A stretch of 64,000 nt of DNA from positions 20,772,001 through 20,836,000 of the forward strand of contig NC_087250.1 in the NCBI RefSeq assembly GCF_037042905.1, written 5' to 3'. Numbering within the stretch: position 1 is the first letter of the stretch; each line of letters starts with the position of its first letter. A program made the translations under genes and the position numbers. Positions 8,130-60,943 of the stretch are shown in pieces. The notes beneath the pieces are model-generated. The model saw only the letters and a list, made by a program, of their open reading frames with translations, searched no databases and had not been told where the DNA came from. Source of the stretch: Lytechinus pictus. Its lineage: Eukaryota.

Positions 8130-8580
8130 ACAGAGGTTTTCGCTGCAATTTGCAATCCCCTAAACACATGCATCATCTTGTGTATAGAAGCAGGCGAATC
8201 GCTGAATGAAATACACCACAAAACATAGCAGCAACTCTTCGTAACGTCGTCAGGCCTACATGAATTACACTTTGCCACCCTTGTCTATGCAATTCGGCAA
8301 TTTGAAAAAAAAAACTGCTACATTTTTTTTTTGAAGAAAAATAAATGTTTACTTGCATTTAATGTTCTTTGAAAATATTGTATTGTTATAAATTTGTGAT
8401 TCCAACCATTTCCTGAAATGGGGTGATTTACCATGGTCCAGTAGGGGTTGTGGTGGGAAACCCTTTCTGGTGTCCGATATTAAAGCTTATATACTTTTTT
8501 ACGGAAAATGATGAAATTATAACGTAACCGGCAATAATTTTGAGGGAATTAGGTTAACATATTTTGCAACTGAAAGAACA
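8130..8580 (+). pseudogene. Exon 3, 5' part: end of SUEL-like domain and a degenerate CUB-like domain with stops
   Basis: Acceptor TTGCATTTCAG| is phase 0 and gives TEVFAAICNPLNTC. A later frame reads INVYLHLMFFENIVLL*ICDSNHFLKWGD..RGCGGKPFLVSDIKAYILFYGK**NYNVTGNNFEGIRLTYFA, a CUB-like pattern with stops at 8389 and 8509/8512. Confidence 0.5.
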
Positions 8581-9745
8581 CAATTTTCTTCCCAACAGGG
8601 CAACACAAAAGGTTCAGCATCCCCCGGTACAACCACACAAGGTACAACCACAAAAGGTTCAACTACACAAGGTACAACCACACAATTTCCAACAAGCGAA
8701 GGTACGGCCACACAAGATCTAACCACCGAAGGTCCAACAACCAAAAGTCTAACCACACAAGTTACACCCACCCAAGGTACAACCACACCAACTGCCACCA
8801 AATTTACAACCGCACATGGTACAACCATGCAAGGGCCAACAACTTTAGGTACAGCCACACAAGGTCCAAACAACAAAGTTACAACCACACAGGGAACAAC
8901 CAAACAATTTCTAACAACCGAAGGTACGGCCACACAAGGTCCAACCACCAAAGGTCCAACAGCCGAAGGTTCAACCACAAAATTTCCAACAACCCAAGGT
9001 ACTACCACACCAACTGCCACTAAAGTTACAACCGCACATGGTACAACCATGCAACGGCCAACAACTTCAGGTACAGCCACACAAGGTCCAACCACCCAAG
9101 TTACAACCACACAACGTACAACCACACAAGGTCCAACAACCACAAAATATCCAAAAGCCCAAGGTTCATTCACTCAAGGGCCGGCAACACAAGGTCATAC
9201 CACAAAAGTTACCACCACCCATGTAACAATCACCAAAGGTGCAGCCACCGACGGTCTAACCATACACGGTAAAAAAAAACCCCTCAATGTCCAACAACCA
9301 AAATAACGACCACACAAGGTCGAACAACCCAAGTTCCAACCACTTAAGGCTCAATCACATAAGGTACAACCACACAATTTCCAACAATCGAAGGTACACC
9401 CACACAAGATCAAACAACACAAGGTACACCAACCAAAGTTCCAATCACCCAAGGTACAACCACACTAGCCCAACCACCCAAGGTCTAACAACCAAGGGTA
9501 CGACCACACATGGTACAAACACACACTGTACAACTTTACACAAGGTCCAACAACCCAAAGTGCAACAACCCAAGGTCCAACCACCCAAGGTGCATCCACA
9601 CAAGGTATAACTACACAACGTCATACAGCACAAGAACCAACCAACAAATTTTCAACAACCACAGAAACAACTACACAAGGGTCAACCATGCAAGTTTTAA
9701 CACCAAAAGCTCCCACCAACCAAGGTACAGCTCCCAATCAGGGTG
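8581..9745 (+). pseudogene. Thr-rich mucin-like stalk (QG[T/P]TT, ~15-bp unit repeats)
   Basis: Frame is open from 8515 to 9306 (TTTQGTTTKGSTTQG...). The same CAAGGTACAACCACA repeat continues to ~9745 but with frameshifts, the first near the A-run at ~9271. Confidence 0.7.
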
Positions 9746-26897: not shown

Positions 26898-27575
26898 ATG
26901 CAGAGTGAATACTGCCCTCTTGCGTTCACAAGTATCAAAGGTCGGGGGGGGGGCGAATATTTGTTTCCGTACATAGAAACGCTATGGTACATGAGTTATT
27001 CATAAGTTGAGCTAAAAAACTGAAGTGCGCAGGCGCATGGACTAGGCGATAGTTCTATATCTTCATCGATTTTTACATGAACGAATGGACGAGCACACTC
27101 TTGTACATAAATGAATGGTCTCCATCCCAATCTCCCCGCATTCTGAAGTTTCGATTTCTCTCTTGCAATCTCTCTCCCTTCCTCTCTCTTAGCACACTCT
27201 CTCTGCTTTATGAATCATGAATGAATTGACTCGCATTATGTTCTCGCAACCCTCCCTCATCTAAATTTATGTTCCTTACTGAACATGTAAGCCAAGTTCT
27301 CCCTCTCTGTTGCTCTCTTTCTCTCCCCTCTCTACATGATTATGCCTATAACTTTTAGAAATACATTGATGCCTATAAATAAAACTTAATGTTGAATTTA
27401 AATGTTGATCAGGATTCATGAAGACCTAAAATCTCAAGAGCTTCAAGCTATAGTAATTTCAGTTTGAGTGATTTATGATTTAGTTATACTTTCCCCGAAC
27501 CCCCAAGTCACATTTCAATGTCGAATATTCCTTGCAGACAAATATAAATCATTTTGTGGGGGCTGACCGAGGAGG

Positions 27576-29442
27576 TCGATATTAGTCCTAAGGTAGTTAA
27601 ATATTCAATTCATGCAATAGTTTCCCCTTTATGTAAAATCATTAATATGTCTCTTGAAAATGGTGTGTTTCCGAACTCTTTAAAACTTGCTAAAGTAACT
27701 CCTATCTTTAAGAATGGTAATAAAACACTAGTAACTAACTACCGACCCATATCAATTTTATCAGTTTTCAGCAAGGTTTTTGGAAAAAAAGTATATGACA
27801 AATTGATAGCATTTATTTCAAAACACAACATATTATATAACAAGCAATTCGGTTTCAGACACGGATACAACACTGCTCATGCATTAATTGATTTAACTGA
27901 AAAAATAGTTAAGGAATATGAAAACAAAGCAATAACGATTGGTGTATTTTTAGACTTATCTAAAGCATTCGATTGTATAGACCATAATATTTTAATTGAT
28001 AAGCTATCATCATACGGGTTTAGAGGGACAGTTTTTGAAGTGGTTAATCAGTTACTTAAGAAATCGAAAACAATGTGTATGCATCGACAAAATTTATTCA
28101 GATTTTCAGGACATTAGAGTAGGGGTACCCCAGGGGTCTAACCTAGGCCCTCTTCCTTTTATACTGTACATAAATGACCTGCAACATGTAAGTAATATTT
28201 TAACTACTAACTTATTTGCAGACGATACAAGTTTATTTTTATCTGGTAAGGATCCCATTCAATTAAATAATATTTTGAAATTCTGAAATGGAAAAAGTTC
28301 ACATGTGGTTCCAAGCCAACAGACTACAAATTAACACTAAGAAGACATCTTTTATGATTTTCAAGCTTAAAAATTAAAAAAATTGAAGAAAACTCCATAA
28401 AATTATAAATGATTTTGAAATTCAGAAAGTGCAATATACGAAATTCCTAGGTGTCACAATTGACGATAGCATGAGTTGGAAACAACATGTAAATAATATT
28501 TCTATGAAGATTTCTCAAACCATTGGTATACTTAATAGAATCAAAGGTGACTTACCATTGCATATTCGTGTTCAATTATACAATACAATGATACTCACGC
28601 ATCTCAGCTATTGCAATATCTTATGGGGGGACTGTGCAAATTTTTTAATGCTACAATTATTTCGCTTACAAAAACGGGCAATAAGAATAATAACAAATTC
28701 CCCATATTTAGCTCACTCTCATCAATTATTCCGTAAATTAAAGATTCTAAAAATTTATGATATACATACCCTTCACACTGCAAGTTTTATGTTTTCATAC
28801 TACAAGAATCAGTTGCCTGACACATTCAACAGTTATTTTAAAACAAATCGCAGTGTAAACAAATATAATACGAGAAATTCTGATAATTTATGCATTCCTT
28901 TTTACCGCTTTTCTTTCTCAAGAACAGTCACAAGTTATAGTGGACCACTCATATGGAACAGTTTGCCCCCTGAAATCAAAGAAAGTCCTTCGCTAAATTC
29001 ATTTAAAGTAAGATGTAAGTCTTACCTTCTAAATATGTATACTTCACCATGTTCTCAGTGAACAAGCTTGCTTGCTTTTATGTGTATGTTTTTTAAACAT
29101 ATTTTTTTGTAATATAGTTGTTATTTTTTTTCCAATTTTTCATTAGTTTGTTGATTTCGTTTATTTTGAAATGTGTGTTTCTTGCAATCTAATAAATTGA
29201 TTGCAGGATGGTCTTTTTTCGGTAATGAATGTTAATCAGGGAGTAGCCTAGATAAGTCTAATTGGCTTTTGCTATTCCCCCACATCGCATTCATTACCCT
29301 ATGTATTTTGTTATTTTTGTTAATTTGTCATTTTACAATATTTATTACTCCTTTACTATGGAATCATTTTGATTGATCTCGATATATTGTATCTTGTATT
29401 TTTTTTTTTTACAGATGTGAAATAAATGAATTTGAATTTGAA
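27576..29442 (+). mobile_element. 5'-truncated CR1/L2-group (Crack-like) LINE, frameshifted RT ORF2
   Basis: RT motifs YRPISILS, QFGFR, FLDLSKAFD, GVPQGSNLGP, LFADDT, KFLGV and WNSLP across ORFs 27554-28117, 27996-28286 and 28429-29061. 3' UTR ends AATAAA-(TGAATT)n. Confidence 0.93.
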
Positions 29443-30204: not shown

Positions 30205-30301
30205 GACTATACGAAACTACAGTTACTGAAAAGTGCTCAACTACATGTACATATAGGAGCTTCATGTAGTATAGTAATAGGGTGGAGCGAGTTGCTTAGA
30301 T

Positions 30302-30348
30302 TTTAGTTGTAGAGACTGTTTCCCCCTGAGGGTTCATCAGCAACTAAA
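30302..30348 (-). ncRNA. Type I hammerhead ribozyme, copy with a helix III mismatch
   Basis: Same as 32318-32364 except position 30312, giving a CUA cleavage triplet and a C-C mismatch in helix III. Confidence 0.7.
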
Positions 30349-30554
30349 TCAAATTTAATGATGAACTAAAGTACAGTTAAAGAGAACAATAACTCTAGTG
30401 CAGTCAAGCAAACAAACAAAAGACACAATGTAAGGGGGATAAATGACTACAGTGAACAGATAATAGCTCTATTCTTTAAACTGAGTAAGGAGAATTGGGG
30501 TAATGTTGGGGTGGAGTGGGTTTGACACATAAGGGGGGGGGGGGGGTTCTATGG

Positions 30555-31090
30555 TTAACCATAACCTGAAAGTAAAAATGTCTTATTGTGTTTACAAGTT
30601 GAAATGAGTTCTGTTCTTGAGTTTATCATTGCTGCTTTCTTGGCCGTGATTATGTGGTACTTCTCCCACAGACACAGGTTGCATCTCTTTGTTTTGGGTG
30701 AGTAGGGCTGCGCATGTCTTACGATTCTCCATTTGACTGAGTAGGGCGTTCCTTCATCCTTCAGTCTCCATATGTACTCGCTGAGCTTAGTTTGGTGCCG
30801 TTTCCCCCGATTTGTGATGCTTGCTTTGTGGTTTGCGTATCTTGTCTTGAATGGAGTTGATGTGAGCCCGATGTACACTTTCCTGTCCCTAGATGTCACT
30901 ACCTCGGCTTCATAGATGAAATTGGTGGCCATGCATTTTCCAGGGATCGGACAGTCTTCTTTCTTTCTGCAGTTGCAGGAGTCCTTGGTTTTGTCTTTGC
31001 TAGTGTCTGTAATCTTGTTGTTGTGAGCTTTTATTGCTGTGGCCATATTGTCCATGCAGCTATAGCTGACTTTCAGCGTGTTTCTGTTGC
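30555..31090 (-). pseudogene. Penelope GIY-YIG endonuclease domain
   Basis: CNCRKKEDCPIPGKC..FIYEA..KVYIGLT..FKTRYANH..LCLWEKYHII; GIY-YIG motifs with the Penelope Cys linker. Confidence 0.9.
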
Positions 31091-31782
31091 AGACCTTGTG
31101 GAGCTGATGTTTTTTGGGAAGTGCTGTTCCACAAGGGCTAGGAACTTTCTGCCGATGTTCGTCCTAACATGCTTGCTGTAGGGTGGGTTGAACCATGTTA
31201 TGTTTCGTTTTCTTTGACGTTGGGTTTCTTTACTGCCACTTGTTGAATGTCTCGGTGAGTATACCAGCTTGGGCTTGTGTCCAGCATCTTGAAGTGCTTT
31301 CTCGTAGTCTGGTTTGGCACTGCTGAAGATGTTTTCGCTACTGGAAATGTTGACAGGCGGGTTTGGATGGACTGCGATATTCTCTTGGTGACATCCGGCG
31401 GATGATTCGATTCGGCATGTACATATAGATGGGAGTCTCCTGGTTTTGAAGAAGGTCTGAACTCTTTCTTGGAGAGGTCGAATGTCACATCAAGAAAGTC
31501 GACAATGGTTGCATTAGCATTGGCTGTGATCTGAAGTCCGAACTCTTTGAATTTCTTGCAGAGGTCCTTCTTTATGTTCTCGGCTGCTCTAGGGGATGCA
31601 TGGACAATCGCCAGGCCATCGTCTCGATATAGACCAATGTTTGTTTTGGGGATTATGTTGCTGACTTCCGCCAGTATGTATGCGCCTACTAGTTCGCATT
31701 TCTTACGAGCCGTCATACGAGCCCATGGTGACGTCGAAGAGGCCCTCAGCGTTCGCCTTCTGCCAGGTCTCGTTGTTGTGGA
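31091..31782 (-). pseudogene. Penelope reverse transcriptase C-terminal part (frameshifted)
   Basis: FDVTMGSYDG, GLYRDDGL, FLDVTFDL and YVHAESNHPP motifs. Confidence 0.9.
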
Positions 31783-32317
31783 AGACTACGAGAAAGCACT
31801 TCAAGATGCTGGACACAAGCCCAAGCTGGTATACTCAAACCACAAAGCAAGCATCACCAATCGGGGGAAACGGCACCAAACTAAGCTCAGCGAGTACATA
31901 TGGAGACTGAAGGATGAAGGAACGCCCTACTCAGTCAAATGGAGAATCGTAAGACATGCGCAGCCCTACTCACCCAAAACAAAGAGATGCAACCTGTGTC
32001 TGTGGGAGAAGTACCACATAATCACGGCCAAGAAAGCAGCGATGATAAACTCAAGAACAGAACTCATTTCAACTTGTAAACACAAGAAGAAATTTTTACT
32101 TTCAGGTTATGGTTAACCATAGAACCCCCCCCCCTATGTGTCAAACCCACTCCACCCCAACATTACCCCAATTCTCCTTACTCAGTTTAAAGAATAGAGC
32201 TATTATCTGTTCACTGTAGTCATTTATCCCCCTTACATTGTATCTTTTGTTTGTTTGCTTGACTGCACTAGAGTTATTGTTCTCTTTAACTGTACTTTAG
32301 TTCATCATTAAATTTGA

Positions 32318-32364
32318 TTTAGTTGCTGATGAACCCTCAGGGGGAAACAGTCTGTACAACTAAA
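32318..32364 (+). ncRNA. Intact type I hammerhead ribozyme in the Penelope terminal repeat
   Basis: UUUAGUUG-CUGAUGA-A-CCC-UCAG-GGG-GAAA-CA-GUC-UG-UA-CAACUAAA. It has an 8-bp helix I, a complete CUGAUGA/GAAA core, helix II, helix III ACA/UGU and a GUA cleavage site (predicted cut after 32356). Confidence 0.85.
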
Positions 32365-32388
32365 ATCTAAGCAACTCGCTCCACCCTA

Positions 32389-32399
<11 letters not shown>

Positions 32400-43035: not shown

Positions 43036-43198
43036 ATAGCAATAGAGACAGAGGGGCGGGTGTACATATCTAGTACACTGAATTTTGATTTCCGTAGTCC
43101 TACCACTATTCTTAAATCATTCTGATCGCCAATATTAACTGGTTGGAATGTTCAATGTTATTACAATTTCTTTGAAATTCGGATCGCAACAAATCGCA

Positions 43199-43597
43199 CA
43201 CAGCAAAAACTGGGATGTTAACCGGTGTACATAGAGGACCACACTGGTCATTTTACACCGGTGTTAAATTGACAGTGCAAGTTTTACGCCTATATGTGTT
43301 ATTACAACACCTTTGGTTGTTACATTTATACTCTTTGGTGTTATGTTCAATCTCTAGGGTGTGATTTTAACACCTCAGCGTGTGGTCCAGGGGCCGCAGA
43401 ACGGTTTTCAAAGTGGGAGGGCTGAGCCAAAAGTGGGGTGGGGGGGGGGGGGCTGACCATGAAAAAAATCACAATCATATGGTAATTTTTCCGTTTTTGT
43501 ACACGGTTTTGGAAAAAAGTGGGGGGCTGAAGCCCCACCCCCCCCCGCTTCCGGGGCCCCTGTGGTCCTTTTTTTTAACTCCTCAGTTTTTACAGTG
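43199..43597. mobile_element. CACTA-like MITE (CACAGCAAAAAC...GTTTTTACAGTG, TSD CA) with a nested CAGGGG...CCCCTG element (43388-43562, TSD TGGTC)
   Basis: Termini and TSDs visible; homologous to the host MITE split at 48775-60242. Confidence 0.75.
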
Positions 43598-48490: not shown

Positions 48491-48923
48491 TATAAGTTTT
48501 ACATATTTGTGTGAAAGAAATGGATGAAGAAAACAATGGTAGGCGTAGCTTAAATCAAGGTTCCCCAGAGCTATCTGCCCTTTGGAACACCGGTGCCTTA
48601 ACCACTAGACCACAGAGACGGGTTAGTGGCTAGGGCCACATCGATCCAATTGACCGTCAGATAGACAGATTTTCGACACTATACCAATTATAATTTCCTT
48701 TGTCGGGTGTAGGTGTGTTTTTGAACAATGACAAGCCGCCATGCCTCAGCTGGATGCTTTCACATCCATATATACACAGCAAAAACTGCGGTGTTAACCG
48801 GTGTACATAGAGGACCACACCAGTTATTTTACACCGGTGTTAAATTGACATTGTTAGTTTAGCACCTATATATGAGGCGCCAAATGTACCAATATTATAT
48901 AGAACAATTATTTGTTATATAAT

Positions 48924-51900
48924 AAGATTATTCGAATAAGCGAAGAAGATAGTTTGCGAGAGAAGACAGGTCTTCTCAAAAAACCAATTATTGGCAAGCC
49001 ATACACGGCCCGCGAAAACAAAGCGCGCCCCTGCGATTCCGCGGGAATTCTCCAAAGACACGCCCCCAGCAACATGTCTGTGATTGGCTGGGCATGTCAC
49101 GGATGGCGCCGTTACACAGCGCCCTTGGTGACAGCCAGGCAACGGCAACGGGGGCACAGCCTCTACGCTAAAAAGAACCAATGAAATGCATTGAAAGAAT
49201 TCAGGGACGTGCGCAATACGCGACAGATTTGGAAGCACATGTTCATTCTCAACTAAGCTCTGGGGGATGCAAGACGTTAATTCGTAGTTCGCTATGAAAC
49301 CGTTCTTGGATCATCATAGTTTAGGCCTCACTTTAGCAGGCTAATACAAACAATTCAAGTACTAGTATTGCTCATCCCAGGTCACAGGGATGACAGGATA
49401 AAATGGATCCCGGGAAAATTAATTCTCAGCGTTTTTATCAACATTATGAATGGCTAGCCGTCCAGATCTCGCTGACGACACGCTGGTGGAGCTGCAGAGT
49501 GCAGTGAAGGGATGGACGGATACAACGCTGAATTACCGAACCCCTACAGGGACTATCTCAGTTAGGCCGGGATCACCGTTCTCGTTAGAGGTCTAACGTT
49601 AGATCGACCGCTATTTTGCCACGGTCTATCGGTGAGACTGCAGAGTTGGAATATACATCAGCTTCCACAGGAATAATAAGTACTTTCAGTCAAACGGAAG
49701 CTCTGACCAATGCCGTGAATGAGGATATTTGCCGGAGTTGTTCTCCTATGAGTACAACTAGGCCGGTTGTCTTTTGAGGCTGTGCCTGTGATAAAACTGC
49801 CGGCGATGCTTCGAGTTCGATGGAGCTGGATCTAATTGATTGTTGATGCGAATGGAGTGGAGTTAGGGCCCGGACCACAGTGTATATATCTTGACCCGGT
49901 GAGTGTTTGGATCCATGTTTGTACTTGTAGTTGCACATCTTGACCTAGACCTTAAATGAATTTGGCCTGAACCGGCCGCTATAGTATAGCTATTACTTAA
50001 CTTGGGGCCCGGAACTCTAACGTTATAACTTGTGATACTAGATCTAGGCCTATATCTATTGACCAAATTCAAAGTTCCAACTCAGACTAAATGTTCTCTG
50101 GGCCTGGATCTATCCCTATAACCCCTTTGGCTTTGGTTCTAGGGCCAACTATGATATACGATATCGATCTAATAGGACCGAACATTTTTCAATATATTTC
50201 TAATGTGGTTGCGGGAATGCAGGATACATGGAAACTGAAGGACCTAGGCTAGCTTCGACTCGGCTTGGTTTGCGACTGGAGTTGAGTTGCTCCATGAGTT
50301 AAGTTGATTCAATATGACTTTATGAGAGCGTTGGTAAGGGTCGTATCAGAGGGCTTGGCGTCGCGCCCCACTCGGAAAGGCAGCGTTGAACAGTGGACTG
50401 AGTTGAATGATCAAATATTAGGTCAAAACCTATCACAATATGAGTTTTTTGTATTGGATCTAATTAAAGGATCAACATTCTGTTTCGCCAGCTGAGTCCC
50501 GGCTCATGCTACAAAATAAACAAAAAAGAAATAAACGATGCTCCATACACCAAGCTGGATCCCACGATAATTTGAGCCCATTGATCAGCTGGCATTTTGT
50601 AACCAAATTCCCCAAAATGAACAGGATAGGGGCTATAAATGAAACTAGGGTGGCTGCCTTCGGTGTGAACAGGGATACGATAAATATGATGAAATAAACT
50701 GCATTCGCCTACCGGTACTAAAACGATATTATTCATTGAGATAGATGGTAGAGGTATAGGTCGATGTACCGTAATCCGTATTTTGCTGTCCATTGGGCGT
50801 GTGTAATAATAGTTATTTGCTTGGTCAACTTCATCCTGTTCTGGACCTACATGAATTAACTGGCAGCTTAGTTGCTTGATGAGGTTGGGGAATGCTAAGA
50901 TACGTCATTTTTTATAGACCTCTATTACCAAATTTCAGTTCGGAAATGTAGTCAATGTATGCCCAGTGTCCGTACCACTTATCCTATCTCGCCGGCCTCG
51001 AGTTTATAAGATGGCGTAAAGATAAAACATAACCACAATAAAATATACGTCGATTGTATCATTCCGGGTGAGGAGGGGAAGTTGAGGGCGTTTGTGCCCC
51101 CCCCCCCGCCGAAATGCTCAAAAGAGCCCTGGAAAACCCCATTTATTGCCATGTTAAAGCTTATCCAACGCTGTAGGTTCGGCCCCTAGTTGTGAAAAGT
51201 GAAGGGAACGAGTGCGGGATTCACAAATTCATTGGCATACTTTTTAAAAGGGCGCCTTGGAAAATCCCCTTTTATTGCAATTCTGGAGCGTTGCAAGTTA
51301 AGGCGATTAGTTGTGGAAAGTATAAGGGAAGAGGTATGGAATTCCTTGCACACATTCTTGTCACGTTGTGTTGAACAATACTCTGCCGGAAGATTTGTTT
51401 GTTTTTTACCTCTCCAGGGACGTGGAGTCTGAAGTTAATTGGCCAGGGCACAAATGATCAAGCCTAGACCCAGACTGATGTACGAGGAGGCTTAGCTAAG
51501 CTTGACCTGGACTGGTGTACGAAGGGACAGGGCTTAGACTTGGCTTACTATGGTTCACATTGGATGACAGTGGTTGCAAAGGTTTTCACACTGCAAGATG
51601 AGAAATCCGGATTTATTTGAAGATGCCGGATTTTTGGTTTAACGTAATGCTCTAAATAGACGAGAGGTTGAGAAATGCAGTGATCAAGATCCTTAAGTCC
51701 AGACTTGAAGAGGAAACATGAATAATCTCGAAGTTGTTGAGAAGTATAACCCTTTCGGAGAAAACTAAAAAACCTTGGAAAAAAGGGGCATTATGGGAAC
51801 ACCTTCAGTTCGTATCTATTTGCAATTCTGGGCAGCCAGCAAAGTCGGTTAAAGCATCGATAACCAAGAATATAAACAAAAACTGTGAGGCATGTCCCTC

Positions 51901-53459
51901 TGGTGCATTTATGTGCTTATATATGTCTCTTCCTTTAAGACATAACCTCACCTGTTGTAAGAGGCGATCTCATATATGAAGCCAACTTGAATGTGGGAAT
52001 GCACGCCTTGATTTTTATGCCCCCATTTAACTTCATTAATCGATGTGGAATGGATATTATTTGTTTCGATTCACACTGGTGACCAAAAACGAAAAAAAAA
52101 AAAAAAAAAAAGAGAGAAAAAAATCCCGGATCTTAGCTTGAAGGAAGGCATTCCTACATAAACATTACACATGAGAAAATCATGCAAAATTTCCTAATGC
52201 ATGAACTGTTACCTGGGATGATGAAATTCAATGGTCTTATTTAACGGTTATGGAGGCCACAGTTTGTTCACTTGGAAAGAAATACACATTTATCAAATAG
52301 TTGTGGAGATTGATTTTGTATGGCATTTCATCAAACAGTTGAGTTGTACAATAATGATAGAATTACTAGCATGGTTTGGCTATACATTAATTTGATATAT
52401 TCTTTGGCCTCAAATTATTTCATGTTAGAGTCACTTCGATGACCCCCTAATTGACATTAAGTTGAAATTAGTTGAAAGAAGGGTACTCCTTTTTAAGGTG
52501 TGCCAAGACATTTGTTGATTTGTTGTTTCACATTTCCGCAAAAGTGGATCCGAAGGTTTTCCAGAGTTTCTTCTCACCGAGTTTTATCTCTGGTTTTTTA
52601 CCCTGGACCTACTTGACGTGGAATTGGTTTCAGCTCTCGTTGCATGAGTTATGTTTAGTGCAACGAGGGCTTAAACTTGCGAACAACATTCACTCGCAGG
52701 GGGAATGAAATAAGCAAGGATGCGATGTTGTCAAGCTTGTTAATGGTTTAGAGTGAGAATGGTTGGCCAATGTCCAATTGATGTAGAGATATTCATAACA
52801 ACTTGGAGGTGTAGACGAAGAGTATGGTATATGATGCGTCCATTCGTTGATCGCATGAGATTGCTTTGTATGGAATAATTTTTTTATTGTTGACTATCCA
52901 TTCCGATGGCTGGCATGGTTTATTGATCATTAACTTAGTTATTGTTGTCCTTGATTATTGAATTGGCTGGGTTGTCGAGCGTGAAAACTCACTTTTGAAC
53001 TTATGGCTTGGTTGGGCTTGGTTACAGAATTACCGACTGATTATTATCGGTAGCTTTGACATCAGCTTTCCAGGGGAGGCAATGGTTTGATAATTTAAAG
53101 TCGACGGCACCGATGCACGGCCCTCTATTCTACCATTTAGGGTCGCCGCCGATGAGGCAGAATATGGGACCAAATCCTACCTTAGTCATGATATCGGGGG
53201 TGCTTTGGAAGAGTGGCCCTTATTTTATCGAGTATTATTATACGATAAAATGCACAAAATAGAATTCTCATACTAGTAAAATGGCGACATTATTGAAGTA
53301 CGAGTATAATTACATGACAAAAGAAGATGACGCTCATAGTATATATTTTGGTTTCCGAAACCATGAGTTGCAACCAGGAAACCAGACGCGATGGTTTGGG
53401 AGGGATGGCCTTGACATGAAGGGACTCCCAAAATCCAATAGTGTTTGCCAAGTGTCACG

Positions 53460-53509
<50 letters not shown>

Positions 53510-56468
53510 TTGGGGCTTTCGCTTTTTTGTGGGTATTTTTTCTTATATCGGTCAAATTTCAACACCAGGGGGAGGCACTGTATACTAATTATGTCAAGAA
53601 AATCGGGACAGGGGAACCCAACTTTCCAAAGTCTCCTGGTTTGGAAGTCCGGCTGGATGTCTTCCGGCAGGTTCCCCTTCCAAGAATTCACGTTCTGGTC
53701 TTGAAGCCTCTCCCCCAATTTTATTTCACACATGAGATAATCTTGTATTGAATAGATGATAAATGTAAAGAGGGGAATCCGCACCCCAGGAAATACCTGT
53801 CCTGGGATCCCGTTGGATCTCTTCCTTCTGGGAGGTCACGTGACCCGGTTTCCCCCTTAAAATCTGGTTGATTGTGGCTTGATGAATATTGTTTAGAAAC
53901 TGTGTACTTGTTAAAATATTGTAAATGTCGTTTTAATGATTCTGGTAAAATCCCCCAGAGGCAATAAAGTTGAGAAACGGCAATTTCATGTTCGATCTGT
54001 ATTTATTCTCGCAATAAGATTATTCGAATAAGCGAAGAAGATAGTTTGCGAGAGAAGACAGGTCTTCTCAAAAAACCAATTATTGGCAAGCCATACACGG
54101 CCCGCGAAAACAAAGCGCGCCCCTGCGATTCCGCGGGAATTCTCCAAAGACACGCCCCCAGCAACATGTCTGTGATTGGCTGCGCATGTCATGGATGGCG
54201 CCGTTACACAGCGCCCTTGGTGACAGCCAGGCAACGGCAACGGGGGCACAGCCTCTACGCTAAAAAGAACCAATGAAATGCATTGAAAGAATTCAGGGAC
54301 GTGCGCAATACGCGACAGATTTGGAAGCACATGTTCATTCTCAACTAAGCTCTGGGGGATGCAAGACGTTAATTTGCCCTCCCTCCCGCCCATTTAATAA
54401 TGGTTGTGAGTGGTTGGTTATAATATTGTCAGGGTCGGAGGGTATTGTTTCTGCCTCCAAAAATGTGGTACACATGTTATGAAAAAAGATTGGATGATAT
54501 AATACATGGTTGTTAATAATTCTGTCGTGATTTTTGTTTATACTCAAATCGGTCAAAGGCGATTTTGCTAATTAATCTAAATGTGGTAATAGCGAATTTT
54601 AAAGACGGGGCTCGAGATTGCTCAATGAGCCTGTTTAAGTGCAAGTTGTGCCGGTTACAGTTGATTGAAATAACCTTATATTTTGGTTGGTTATACTGTT
54701 GATAGATAACATGGATTTATTTTGGGTGGTTGGCTGGGCATGTGTTTGGATAGAATTGCATTGGTTGCATAGGCTTGTATTAGTTGACTGGATGGGCTTG
54801 ATTGGCTTGTTGGTCGGATAGACTTTTATTGGTTGGTTGGGCGATATGTTTGGTTGTTTATTATCATAAAGATCCACGCTCTACAAGCAAGGCTTTTAGT
54901 GGATCCCCTCATTTCCAAACAAGTTCTTGTTAATACAATTGCCCAAATTTTCATAATTTGTCTATAGTTGATTTGTAATTACAATTGTTGTGTATTTGTG
55001 TTTATGCATTTAGTGCATATTTGATTTGTACCGTGATTTTTTATGATGTACATGACGGAAGTTCAAAATGAACTCGTTTTTATTCGGTTGGATGTGCTTG
55101 CGCTGGTTGGGTGGATGGGCTTGCTATGATTGGTTGGTTGGTTATAATGATCATAGGGATTCACGCTCTCCAAGTAGTTATTTTAGTGGATCCCCTCATT
55201 TCCAACCAAGCTATTAATACTTTTGTACAAATTTTAAAATTTTGTCTGTAGTGGACCGGCAATTACAATTTATATGTATTTGCAAATTGTTTATGCGCAC
55301 TATGATGCATATTTAATTCGTGTTTGTATTTGGTAATGATGTACAAGATGAACTGAAATTTGTTTGGTGGCTTTATATGGTTGGTTGGCTGGGCTTGTTC
55401 TGGTTGACTACAATTGCACAAATTTTTATAATTTGCAGTTGATTTGGAATTATAATTGATGTGTATTTGTGTTAATGCATTTGATGCATATTGATTGGTA
55501 CCGTAATTTTTTGTGATGTACATGACGAAAGGAACTTGTTTTGTTTGGTTGGATGGGCTAACATTGGTTGGATGTTTAGGCTTGTTATGATTAGTTGATT
55601 GGTTATGATCATATCGATCCACGCTCTATCAGCAGATCCTTTAGAAAGATCCCCTCAGTTTCAACCAAGCTGATAATACTATTGTACAAATATTGAAATT
55701 GTGTCCGTAGTTGACTTGTAATTACAATTGATATGTATTGTCATTGTTTATGCATCATATCATTTATAATTGATTTATGTTTGTATGTGGTAATGATGTA
55801 CAAGGTGAACTTAAACTCGTTTGGCTAGTTAGATTGGCTTTACATGGTTGGATGGTTGGATGGGCTTGTTATGGTTGGTTGGTCGGGCTTGTTATGGTTG
55901 GTTGGTCGGGCTTGATATGGTTGGTTGGATGGGCTTGTTTTGGCTAGTAGGATGGGCTTGTTTTGGTGTTTGGCCTGATTACTGAGTATTTTTTCTTATA
56001 TCGGTCAAATTTCAACACCAGGGGGAGGCACTGTATACTAATTATGTCAAGAAAATCGGGACAGGGGAACCCAACTTTCCAAAGTCTCCTGGTTTGGAAG
56101 TCCGGCTGGATGTCTTCCGGCAGGTTCCCCTTCCAAGAATTCACGTTCTGGTCTTGAAGCCTCTCCCCCAATTTTATTTCACACATGAGATAATCTTGTA
56201 TTGAATAGATGATAAATGTAAAGAGGGGAATCCGCACCCCAGGAAATACCTGTCCTGGGATCCCGTTGGATCTCTTCCTTCTGGGAGGTCACGTGACCCG
56301 GTTTCCCCCTTAAAATCTGGTTGATTGTGGCTTGATGAATATTGTTTAGAAACTGTGTACTTGTTAAAATATTGTAAATGTCGTTTTAATGATTCTGGTA
56401 AAATCCCCCAGAGGCAATAAAGTTGAGAAACGGCAATTTCATGTTCGATCTGTATTTATTCTCGCAAT
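48924..56468 (+). mobile_element. Ngaro/PAT-type tyrosine-recombinase retrotransposon with split direct repeats (A1-internal-B1-A2-spacer-B2), coding region decayed
   Basis: A1 48924-49282 matches A2 54016-54374 (359 bp); B1 53533-54015 matches B2 55986-56468 (483 bp). AAT sits at the left junction, the B1/A2 junction and the right end. Faint RT/YR-like remnants occur in order (YVDCIIPG 51046, CPIDV 52771, KTHF 52984, GRQW 53074). Confidence 0.8.
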
Positions 56469-56599
56469 CATTATTTATTAAATAATAACTATTATTTATA
56501 TATAATTTACATTTTATTTGTAAATAACTACTATTATATAAAATATCATTTCTAATTATTTATATATAATTCCAAGTAATACTTCATTATTTGTAAATA

Positions 56600-57000
56600 A
56601 TAATAGTTCGACATTCCATTATTTATAAATAATGATTATTTATTTTTCATTATTTATAAATAATGATTATTTGTTTTTCATTATTTACAAATAATGATTA
56701 TTTGTTTTTCATTATTTATAAATAATGATTATTTGTTTTTCATTATTTATAAATAATGATTATTTGTTTTTCATTATTTACAAATAATGATTATTTGTTT
56801 TTCATTATTTATAAAAAATGATTATTTGTTTTTCATTATTTATAAATAATGATTATTTGTTTTTCATTATTTATGAATAATGATTATTTGTTTTTCATTA
56901 TTTACAAATAATGATTATTTGTTTTTCATTTATAAATAATGATTATTTGTTTTTCATTATTTATAAATAATTTGTTGAGTTTTCCATTATTTATAAATAA
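56600..57000. repeat. 31-bp tandem repeat TTATTTATAAATAATGATTATTTGTTTTTCA (inverted mirror at ~59500-59880)
   Basis: Period 31; each unit with its junction contains the palindrome ATTATTTATAAATAAT. Confidence 0.9.
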
Positions 57001-60000
57001 TGATTATTTGTTAAATAATGAAAACGTCTACTTCATTATTTATAAATAATTTTTTCGAGTGCACCATTATTCTCATTATTTATAAATAATCATTATTTAA
57101 TGTTCGAGTTTTCCATTATTTATAAATAAAGATTATTTGTTAAATAATGAAATATCTACTTCATTATTTATAAATAATAATTTTGTTTCAATATCCCATT
57201 ATTTATAAATAATCATTATTTATAAACAATTTTTACAGTTTGCCATTATATACAAATAATCATTATTTATATACAAATAACTATTATTTATTAAATAATG
57301 CGATTATTTATTAAATAATGCCATTATTTATTAAATAATGGATAACTCGCTATAACATGCAAATGTGGGACCGCCCATGTTATGAATATTCATGATGCGA
57401 TTTCCTTTTTCGTGATTTTTCTTCACAAATGTTTGTCCATTTCCTCTTCATAATGACATTTCTTGAAGCAATTTTCTAGGGATATGGTCTGATTGTAATA
57501 TTCTTCATTTTCTATATAACTTCGTCTTCGTAGAAATATCAAAAATTGTAATTTTATACGATTTTTCCTACAGTTCACAATCCCCATAGGCGCGCGTGTA
57601 TCGTAGGGACAACCGGTGAATCGACGGAGTGCTCTTCATCGAAATACTACGTTGGTTGGTCCCCGGAAGTGGCGGGCGGAATTTAGCCCGAATCCCGATG
57701 GAAGTAGATCAAGTGCATATGAGCTGAGAGAGTGAAATATCAGTGTACAGGCCCTTCTACTGTTTATAAATATTTCTTGTTGCTTTTTTTGTTAAGTTAA
57801 TTTTTCCTGGTGTAGAGATAAGTTTCAGTTCTAATAATGCACTTCAAATACATTTTGGAGTGTCTGTTTGAGGCGTTTGGGGCGATTTCACCCTGGCCCC
57901 AAAATGCGCTCGCAACGACAATACGGGGGCATGATGACCCCAACATTTTTAAAAACTTATTTTTCTATTGAAAATTATCACAAAATTCACCAAAAGTGTG
58001 CACGAAAGCCTTCGTATTTCACTTTTAAAACTCCAAAAAGTGCCCAAATGACAAGCTTGGTCGCTTCGCTGTGTCGCTTTCAACTTGAGAAAGTTTACGC
58101 GTCTGCTTCCCCCCCCCCCCCCCCCTCCTCCGAAAGAAATTCTGTATACGGCCATGCTCTAAAGAGCCTGGCACATTGATTTATGTATACTTTCATTTTC
58201 ATTATTTTTATCTCATTATCATCATGGCCTTACGCAGATTTTTTTTCCAGGGGGCCGGGGCCGGAGCATGACGCGCGTAAACTTTCTCAAAAAAATCTTG
58301 AAAGCGAGACAGCCACGGGACCAAGCCCAAATGACAAGCTTGGTCGCTTCGCTGTCTCGCTTTCAACTTGAGAACGTTTACGCGCGTCTGCCCCCACCCC
58401 CCGAAAGAAATTCTGTGAACGGCCATGCTCAAAAGAGCATATGGCACATTGATTTATATGTACTTTTCATTTTCATAATTTTTATCACATTATCATCATG
58501 GCCTTACACAGAATTTTTACCAGGGGGGGGGGGGGGGAGCAGCTAGGACGCGCGTAAAGTTTCTCAAAAAAATCTTGAAAGCGAGACAGCGACGCGACCA
58601 AGCTCAAATGACAAGCTTGGTCGCTTCGCTTTTTCAAGATTTTTATGAGAAAGTTTACGCGCGTCCTGCTCCCCCCCCCCGGAAAAAATTATGCGTAAGG
58701 CCATGATGATAATGAGATAAAAATAATGAAAATGAAGTACACATAAATCAATGTGCCAGGCTCTTTAGAGCATGGCCGTATACAGAATTTCTTTCGGAGG
58801 AGGGGGGGGGGGGGGAAGCAGACGCGTAAACTTTCTCAAGTTGAAAGCGACACAGCGAAGCGACCATGCAAGCTTGTCATTTGGGCACTTTTTGGAGTTT
58901 TAAAAGTGAAATACGAAGGCTTTCGTGCACACTTTTGGTGAATTTTGTGATAATTTTCAATAGAAAAATAAGTTTTTAAAAATTTAGGGGTCATCATGCC
59001 CCCGTATTGTCGTTGCGAGCATTTTGGGGCCAGGGTGAAATCGCCCCAAACGCCTCAAACAGACACTCCAAAATGTATTTGAAGTGCATTATTAGAACTG
59101 AAACTTATCTCTACACCAGGAAAAATTAACTTAACAAAAAAAGCAACAAGAAATATTTATAAAAAGTAGAAGGGCCTGTATAATGGTTATTTGTATATAA
59201 ATAATGATTATTTGTATATAATGGCAAACTGTAAAAATTGTTTATAAATAATGATTATTTATAAATAATGGGATATTGAAACAAAATTATTATTTATAAA
59301 TAATGAAGTAGATATTTCATTATTTAACAAATAATCTTTATTTATAAATATTGGAAAACTCGAACATTAAATAATGATTATTTATAAATAATGAGAATAA
59401 TGGTGCACTCGAAAAAATTATTTATAAATAATGAAGTAGACGTTTTCATTATTTAACAAATAATCATTATTTATAAATAATGGAAAACTCAACAAATTAT
59501 TTATAAATAATGGAAAACAAATAATCATTATTTATAAATAATGAAAAACAAATAATCATTATTTGTAAATAATGAAAAACAAATAATCATTATTTATAAA
59601 TAATGAAAAACAAATAATCATTATTTATAAATAATGAAAAACAAATAATCATTATTTATAAATAATGAAAAACAAATAATCATTATTTGTAAATAATGAA
59701 AAACAAATAATCATTATTTATAAATAATGAAAAACAAATAATCATTATTTATAAATAATGAAAAACAAATAATCATTATTTGTAAATAATGAAAAACAAA
59801 TAATCATTATTTATAAATAATGAAAAACAAAAAATCATTATTTATAAATAATGAAAAATAAATAATCATTATTTATAAATAATGGAATGTCGAACTATTA
59901 TTATTTACAAATAATGAAGTATTACTTGGAATTATATATAAATAATTAGAAATGATATTTTATATAATAGTAGTTATTTACAAATAAAATGTAAATTATA

Positions 60001-60943
60001 TATAAACAATAGTTATTATTTAATAAATAATGATTATATAACAAATAATTGTTCTATATAATATTGGTACATTCGGCGCCTCATACCTATAGGCAGATAG
60101 GTGTTATTGCAACACCTTTGGTTGTTACATGTACACTCTTTGGTGTTATATTCAATCTCTAGGGTGTAATTTTAACACCAGAGGGTGTGGTCCTCTATTA
60201 ACACCCACTGGTGTCAGTTTTAACACTACAGTTTTTACAGTGTATATATATATATATATATGGATGTTATCACGCACTCAGAAAGATTACATTAGTTTAT
60301 ATTGTATACTATTAAGTTTTAATATAGGTATATTTTTGTTATCGGCGCGTGTATATTTACATTAATTTTGAAGATAGCATTTTTATTTGTTCCTTATCCA
60401 CGATAGTTTGGGATCTGAAGATTGATAGATAAACAAAAGATAGACAAGGTGTTTTCTTTTATTTGCACACGTCTGAAGCATACCGACATATGTTTTTATA
60501 CCCACCGAGAACATAAAATATATTTCCCTTGGGTATACTGGCGTATACATTACATTGGAACGTTGCAGTCTGATCCCAAAATAGAAATAACCAAGAAAAT
60601 TAATGTTTAAATAATAACAACACAGGTAGGTAGAAGAGCGTTTTTTAATTTGTTCCTGAATGGTCTTTGTGATAAAAGGAGATTGGATAAATAATTTAGT
60701 ATTTATAAAATAACTAATTTGCTGAAGCAGGATGGTGATTTTTTTTCATTTTGTTAGTAAGTTTAATATTCAATATAACTCTCTTGACTATTATTCTGTC
60801 AAATGGATAAATATTTGCAAGGATCCTCCTAAAAAGGGTGTTTATTACCACTGGAAAATTGTATAGCATTAACAAGGTAACGAAAGTATGTGAATTTATT
60901 CATAGATGTGTGTCGAGAAAATGTTTTAAACCCATATTTCCCC

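Follow-up and report, generated by a model that had tools for sequence, protein, structure and literature searches.

What kind of mobile element interrupts a host foldback at positions 48921 to 56468 of the 64,000-nt stretch of Lytechinus pictus DNA analysed here (assembly GCF_037042905.1, contig NC_087250.1, positions 20,772,001 to 20,836,000; hereafter the window), and by what route could it have moved when it seems to carry no gene? The element lies on the + strand, is 7548 nt long including an AAT trinucleotide at each end, and is built of two pairs of direct repeats in split order, A1-interior-B1A2-spacer-B2. We consider it a young, gene-less split-direct-repeat element inserted at AAT, and likely a non-autonomous tyrosine-recombinase (YR) retrotransposon of the DIRS order moved by helper enzymes, and give this reading a probability of about 0.75. 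The element class is already known, with TOC1 of Chlamydomonas reinhardtii as its precedent; what is added to an initial annotation of this locus is a predicted promoter, a poly(A) signal and a predicted pairing between A and B.

The repeat A1 (48921..49282; 362 nt with its AAT and 359 nt without, 50% GC, CpG observed/expected 1.06) is followed by a non-coding interior of 4250 nt (49283..53532), by B1 (53533..54015, 483 nt with the AAT) and by A2 (54013..54374); B1 and A2 share the AAT at 54013..54015, which is the predicted template of a circle junction. A non-coding spacer of 1611 nt (54375..55985), G/T-rich on the + strand, separates A2 from B2 (55986..56468, 483 nt with the AAT). All four repeat boundaries were sharp in the self-comparison. 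A1 and A2 differ at 2 of 362 positions (54183 and 54192 of A2) and B1 and B2 at none of 483, which amounts to 2/845 mismatches or 0.24% within the copy, so the layout with its 1.6-kb spacer and the near-identity of both repeat pairs, as read by eye in the initial annotation, were confirmed. The spacer is an old tandem array, which consists of diverged 250-470-nt units with a unit-to-unit identity of 67-78% and a 23-nt tandem. No long inverted match was found inside the element, and hence neither the inverted terminal repeats nor the internal complementary region that mark DIRS1-like elements.

The integration site can be read to the base. The left end reads TTGTTATAT-AAT-AAGATT, with an attL-like core at 48921..48923, the internal junction reads CTCGC-AAT-AAGATT, and the right end reads CTCGC-AAT-CATTATT, with an attR-like core at 56466..56468. 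Repeat self-comparison showed that the element interrupts the left arm of a host foldback (48872..60084), the arms of which are near-identical (6 mismatches in 856 aligned bases), and the uninterrupted mirror arm preserves the empty target site (60026..60045, - strand), which reads TTGTTATAT-AAT-CATTATT. The left flank agrees with the mirror arm in 51 of 52 bases and the right flank in 134 of 135, and the core common to both ends, the internal junction and the empty site is exactly 3 nt, AAT, at this one insertion site. Because the AAT is shared exactly and the flanks match the mirror arm, the insertion was precise and is younger than the foldback, and the core, the empty site, the B1/A2 junction and the recent insertion described earlier all stood up to this comparison. 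A plain 3-bp target duplication is ruled out, because AAT is present at the element's own internal junction. DIRS-order elements are flanked by their junction trinucleotide (PMC7192593), and the commonest core among DIRS1-like elements is ATT/AAT (PMC3266345). The arrangement typical of split-direct-repeat YR retrotransposons, in which the junction trinucleotide occurs once in the target, once internally and at both ends, was found at one site. A perfect 12-nt palindrome lies just inside A (54021-54032), and an imperfect hairpin spans the B/A junction (54007-54053, pairing B 54007-54014 with A 54046-54053 plus an extension) with the AAT at the loop edge. The hairpin is weak, being matched by 5 of 1000 shuffles, 13 of 300 DNA shuffles and 13 of 198 windows of the element; the palindrome and the hairpin are possible candidates for a recombinase site.

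The family extends beyond this locus, as had been expected, since its interior, spacer and joints were found in other samples, under two further organism labels. The stretch or part of it was detected in 16 of 21 listed public sequencing runs, and at least half of its words in 9; no RNA run was listed as a holder, which does not count as evidence. Four of the 21 were compared with 49283-55985 at 85% likeness, namely X2 (organism A), X9 (organism B), X10 (organism C) and X19 (an RNA run, of which about 6% was read). Among the pieces listed, the interior carries 0.53% substitutions in X2 (21 of 3971 bases) and 0.69% in X9; so small a number as in X2 would not restore reading frames. Because both interiors are near-identical to the one described here, the family as a whole is non-coding, and not this copy alone. 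All of the 30 bins were covered in X10, at 8-10% divergence and with many gaps and indels; the substitutions amounted to 8.0% in the interior (103/1292), 8.5% in B (28/330) and 9.6% in the spacer (127/1325). X10 contains the joint between A and interior (54357 to 49284), that between A and spacer (record 5) and that between spacer and B (55985 to 53552); the last of them was also found in X2 and X9, and a single contig of X9 (record 21) reads spacer-B-A. Since the same joints occur in X10 at such divergence, the layout predates the split from organism C. Assemblies do err at near-identical repeats inside foldback regions, but a local duplication or an assembly artefact is scarcely credible here and is refuted by the exact empty site in the mirror arm and by the recovery of the joints and all 30 bins in independent runs. 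At 8 of the 40 listed positions (49749, 54205, 54943, 54988, 55012, 55075, 55095 and 55146) the minority allele of X2 is the one found in X10, which points to an older subfamily in organism A. X2 also carries about 40 extra bases at 53350-53352.

No coding capacity was detected in the element. The longest stop-free stretch of the interior is 131 amino acids (aa), within the range of 200 shuffles (median 104, 95th percentile 143), with 63-93 stops per frame, and that of the spacer is 120 aa (95th percentile 123, 200 shuffles); a 162-aa stretch extends from the interior into B1. The absence of open reading frames above about 160 aa was thus correctly noted before, and the faint reverse transcriptase (RT)- and YR-like motifs reported with it were not backed by any search. 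In the protein profile searches, which used general libraries without Ngaro- or PAT-specific profiles, no Pfam family matched any of the six read-through frames of the element, and no PHROGs family any of the six of the interior. The 67 stop-free stretches, spacer included, gave 14 weak Pfam matches, all below the curated cut-off and none to RT, RNase H (RH) or recombinase. One of the six frames (49935-53531) had 0 phmmer matches among 1.84 billion proteins, and word searches, which the tool itself rates as weak evidence, returned an RT-like stretch in 0 of 85 candidates and a YR-like stretch in 0 of 3. Two sub-threshold Rfam matches were dismissed, and a scan for bacterial promoters, irrelevant here, gave 0 sites. 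A DNA pattern from the B end was absent from viral contigs (0 matches) and hit 44 metagenome loci, none matching past 28 bases, and these hits were rejected as chance.

The initial annotation had called the element Ngaro/PAT-type and supposed that it lost its coding long ago. In such a history an autonomous Ngaro or PAT element, the interior of which coded for gag, RT/RNase H and YR, would have decayed. The 4.25 kb of the interior is about the length of such a coding region, and a few stretches looked RT-like by eye, unsupported by any search. No RT, RH or YR remnant was detected, however, by Pfam, PHROGs or phmmer, in the 67 stop-free stretches or in the motif word searches, and pieces of host repeats and stretches of poly(A) are embedded in the interior, which shows many indels relative to organism C. 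We therefore regard this history as doubtful, and the interior may have decayed beyond the reach of searches or may never have been coding. With respect to class, the gag, RT/RH and YR frames of autonomous Ngaro elements, which lack MT and have an RT of the Ngaro clade, were not found, nor were the RT/RH, MT and YR domains of the PAT group (Pat1, Toc3, Kangaroo) in a search that included the spacer. Intact split repeats without coding capacity, the mark of non-autonomous TOC1-like elements, are present. The split-direct-repeat part of the earlier assignment thus stands; a choice between Ngaro and PAT would need the proteins. The element would work like Ngaro, PAT and VIPER elements, but because the protein tests of both Ngaro and PAT failed we file it only as a TOC1-like non-autonomous split-repeat element.

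TOC1 is likewise a gene-less, helper-dependent DIRS member and has been named a non-autonomous DIRS element (PMC9940879), and Toc elements have split direct repeats (PMC4157794). As compared to TOC1, the present element resides in an animal-type genome and has a 1.6-kb non-coding A2-B2 spacer and A-B pairing around AATAAA. Ngaro elements share the A1 ... B1 A2 B2 order with identical pairs, which are 236 and 152 bp long in DIRS-53_XT of Xenopus (PMC9210276), and one of them, SpNgaro, is reported from S. purpuratus (PMC4157794); the present element differs in lacking the gag, RT/RH, YR and SGNH frames and in the 1.6 kb between A2 and B2. A long A2-B2 interval is known in the PAT group, from Pat1 of nematodes and Kangaroo, but there it encodes the recombinase (PMC4157794), whereas the interval of the present element consists of diverged tandem units, and its frames do not exceed chance length. 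SIRE of Trypanosoma cruzi is a non-autonomous derivative of the split-repeat element VIPER in which A2 and B2 are about 30 nt apart, comparable to the A2-spacer-B2 half (PMC6681497); SIRE has no internal B/A junction, in contrast to the full layout kept here.

The A-x-BA-y-B layout is formally symmetric, so a single locus would also fit two Crypton-like, non-autonomous DNA elements moved by a recombinase, A-interior-B and A-spacer-B, which share their ends and stand head to tail at the same AAT. Cryptons carry a YR gene and 4-6 bp terminal direct repeats and have no long split repeats (PMC13465315), which is not what was found here. The read depths lend this tandem pair something, as the spacer is 1.5-4 fold deeper than the interior and the depth of B-like sequence in X10 is about 15 times that of the interior, so that there are, or may be, lone A-spacer-B units and further families ending in B; the tool warns that read depth is no copy number, and the interior median excludes two high-copy bins. 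Within these limits the depths of X9 (interior 3.8, spacer 7.3, A 10.7 and B 12.6) come to roughly 1:1:2:2, and those of X10 depart from this ratio. A 1389-nt contig of X10 (record 4) stops exactly at the B end (window 53686-54015) and has 1071 unrelated bases upstream; together with the depth of B-like sequence this indicates that the B end is common to further families, perhaps including a helper. On the other hand, both units of such a pair were already in organism C at 8-10% divergence, yet the ends differ here by only 0.24%. The layout being old and this difference small, the repeats have been kept in step, which is hard to achieve for two independent tandem elements. The repeats are likely rebuilt from one template in each cycle, as in split-repeat retrotransposons, judging indirectly from the X10 contigs as a whole. 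A predicted promoter at the A end, a poly(A) signal at the B end and the A-B pairing described below would suit an RNA intermediate, and the X9 contig reads through B into A. Two tandem DNA elements are accordingly an improbable explanation.

Several observations weigh against a DIRS-order retrotransposon. Homology to RT, RH or YR was absent in all Pfam, PHROGs, phmmer and word searches, and the tie to DIRS-order elements is therefore purely anatomical. The depth of A in X2 (75) is below the sum of interior and spacer (49 + 75), and each of the three contig runs has a greater depth on the spacer than on the interior. Neither a second insertion site nor a helper was seen among the loose ends listed in the runs compared. 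In the part of the RNA run that was read, neither A nor B nor the unique interior received a read; the reads fall only on the nested host-repeat pieces, with traces in the spacer. Two such short pieces, common to a high-copy host repeat, were found in the interior by the run comparison, one at 51111..51168, where X2, X10 and X19 show loose ends and a spike in depth, and the other at 52534..52626.

If the element is nonetheless a non-autonomous DIRS-order retrotransposon, its family keeps only what helper enzymes read, which directs attention to its cis signals. A contains a single initiator match, TCATTC (49243..49248, + strand, predicted +1 at 49245, a consensus match only), and a predicted downstream promoter element (DPE), AGACG, follows on the same strand at 49272..49276, that is, at +28 to +32, with A ending at +38. 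The spacing of initiator and DPE follows PMC4748587, where their use by insect retrotransposons is described. Strict initiator-DPE pairs occur within the element only at 49245 and at its copy in A2 (predicted +1 at 54337), and in 14 of 3000 shuffles of A by chance; the whole window has 6 on both strands, including these 2. A1 further contains four CCAAT/ATTGG boxes (48984, 48990, 49083 and 49178; 48/2000 shuffles), with a CCAAT at -67, and the sole AATAAA of B lies 53 nt from the B end (83/2000 shuffles). These motifs together give the predicted transcription unit a + strand polarity.

The bases immediately downstream of the predicted start are complementary to the region around this AATAAA. 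The 5' pairing arm (49246..49268, + strand; predicted RNA +2 to +24) comprises 9 nt, a 3-nt loop and 11 nt, and the 3' pairing site (56403..56429, + strand) provides the partners on either side of the AATAAA at 56416-56421. Helix 1 (9 bp) joins A 49246-49254 with B 56421-56429 and helix 2 (11 bp) joins A 49258-49268 with B 56403-56413; both are perfect and colinear, and the AATAAA occupies the internal loop and the first duplex base. A sum of 20 colinear perfect pairs (9+11) was reached by 0 of 3000 shuffles. The first 26 nt bind best at B1/B2, at -32.7 kcal/mol as compared to -21.0 at the next site outside B, and the predicted pair probabilities of the A-B helices are 0.70-1.0. The fold of the B1 end with A2 has a z of -4.9 (0 of 100 shuffles), and B1 (pairing site 53950-53976, AATAAA at 53963) and A2 (pairing arm 54338-54360) form the same helices within one strand with probabilities of 0.70-0.98. 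Other results tell against a meaningful pairing. A crude duplex scan of the whole of A was non-significant, with 13 of 30 shuffles as strong, and the 11-bp helix alone was reached by 4.1% of 3000 shuffles. The sum of 20 was reached by 11 of 1474 real pairs in the window, at least 5 of which are inverted copies of repeats, and both the statistic for two helices and the region to be folded were picked after the helices had been seen.

The following steps are drawn from the DIRS model (PMC7192593) and from the predicted signals. Transcription by RNA polymerase II would begin at 49245, 38 nt short of the A1 end, and stop some 15-25 nt past the AATAAA of B2. The resulting RNA of about 7.2 kb would lack most of A1 (324 nt) and the B2 tip. 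Both ends and the circle junction would be restored from the internal B1-AAT-A2 cassette as template, and a crossover made by the recombinase of the helper between the AAT of this junction and an AAT in the chromosome would place a single AAT at either end. In the least certain step, RNA +2 to +24 would anneal to the B2 sequences flanking the AATAAA and bring the ends together; if a Tf1-like cleavage freed the 11-nt arm, its 3' end, lying on 56403 and pointing upstream, could then prime the minus strand along the whole RNA. Tf1 of Schizosaccharomyces pombe is a mechanistic analogue only: its first 11 RNA bases pair elsewhere in that RNA and, once cut by RNase H, serve as the primer (PMC7175516). 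Tf1 is a Ty3/gypsy long-terminal-repeat element with the pairing site near its 5' end, whereas in the present element the partner surrounds the poly(A) signal at the 3' end and priming is only a prediction. We advance the Tf1-like self-primer only tentatively.

The pairing could equally belong to the same class of element and act as a poly(A)-site switch or a packaging signal instead of a primer. The arm of A would then lie on B1 and hide the first AATAAA, so that the polymerase reads through to B2. A full-length RNA must pass the identical AATAAA in B1, this signal sits in the internal loop and first duplex base, and B1 and A2 are predicted to form the helices in one strand, all of which would suit a switch; the identical B2 could, however, be hidden likewise by the arm of A2, and the arm begins at +2, directly behind the predicted start, where by analogy with Tf1 a primer made from the 5' end should begin (PMC7175516). 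We regard this role as a serious possibility that still falls short of probable. Beyond priming and a switch or packaging signal, the pairing may be due to chance or have another role.

The primer of reverse transcription in DIRS-order elements is stated to be unknown (PMC7192593), and the A-B pairing, if true, would be a testable primer candidate for the whole class. A search of the literature on non-autonomous split-repeat elements and on such pairing gave no description of this variant, nor of the pairing or of self-priming in split-repeat elements, the key papers of Goodwin and Poulter lying outside this search. A more general proposal, which we consider rather unlikely, is that split-repeat YR retrotransposons self-prime, the first 24 bases of their RNA annealing across the 3' poly(A) signal and being cut into a primer; the present gene-less family, which has stayed mobile through a species split with nothing but cis signals of its own, would then display the minimal set, namely an initiator-DPE, a 5'-3' duplex, a poly(A) signal and an AAT junction. 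The predicted start, the 20-bp duplex and the poly(A) signal are aligned to the base and yield exact predictions for the RNA ends and the 5' ends of the cDNA. Gene-less split-repeat families of 7-9 kb slip past protein-based annotation.

The foldback that received the element has arms made of a 31-nt tandem. It is flanked by ACCTATAT and ACCTATAG, which are alike in 7 of 8 bases and are likely a target duplication, with 8 extra bases on the right. It is reminiscent of the TU foldback elements of sea urchins. The foldback itself splits an older repeat of about 190 nt (48774-48874 and 60097-60193), an intact copy of which is present at 43198-43388 in the same window, so that this repeat, the foldback and the element represent three nested insertions. 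A second palindromic element with 277-nt internal units lies in the middle of the foldback (57746-59180). Elsewhere in the window, an inverted-repeat element at 30270-32396 contains frames at 30555-31785, which look by eye like pieces of a Penelope-type RT and a GIY-YIG domain, and two frames at 27548-29061 resemble, again by eye, a broken LINE reverse transcriptase. A 15-nt tandem array at 8515-9630 carries a Thr/Gln/Gly-rich open frame that looks mucin-like by eye.

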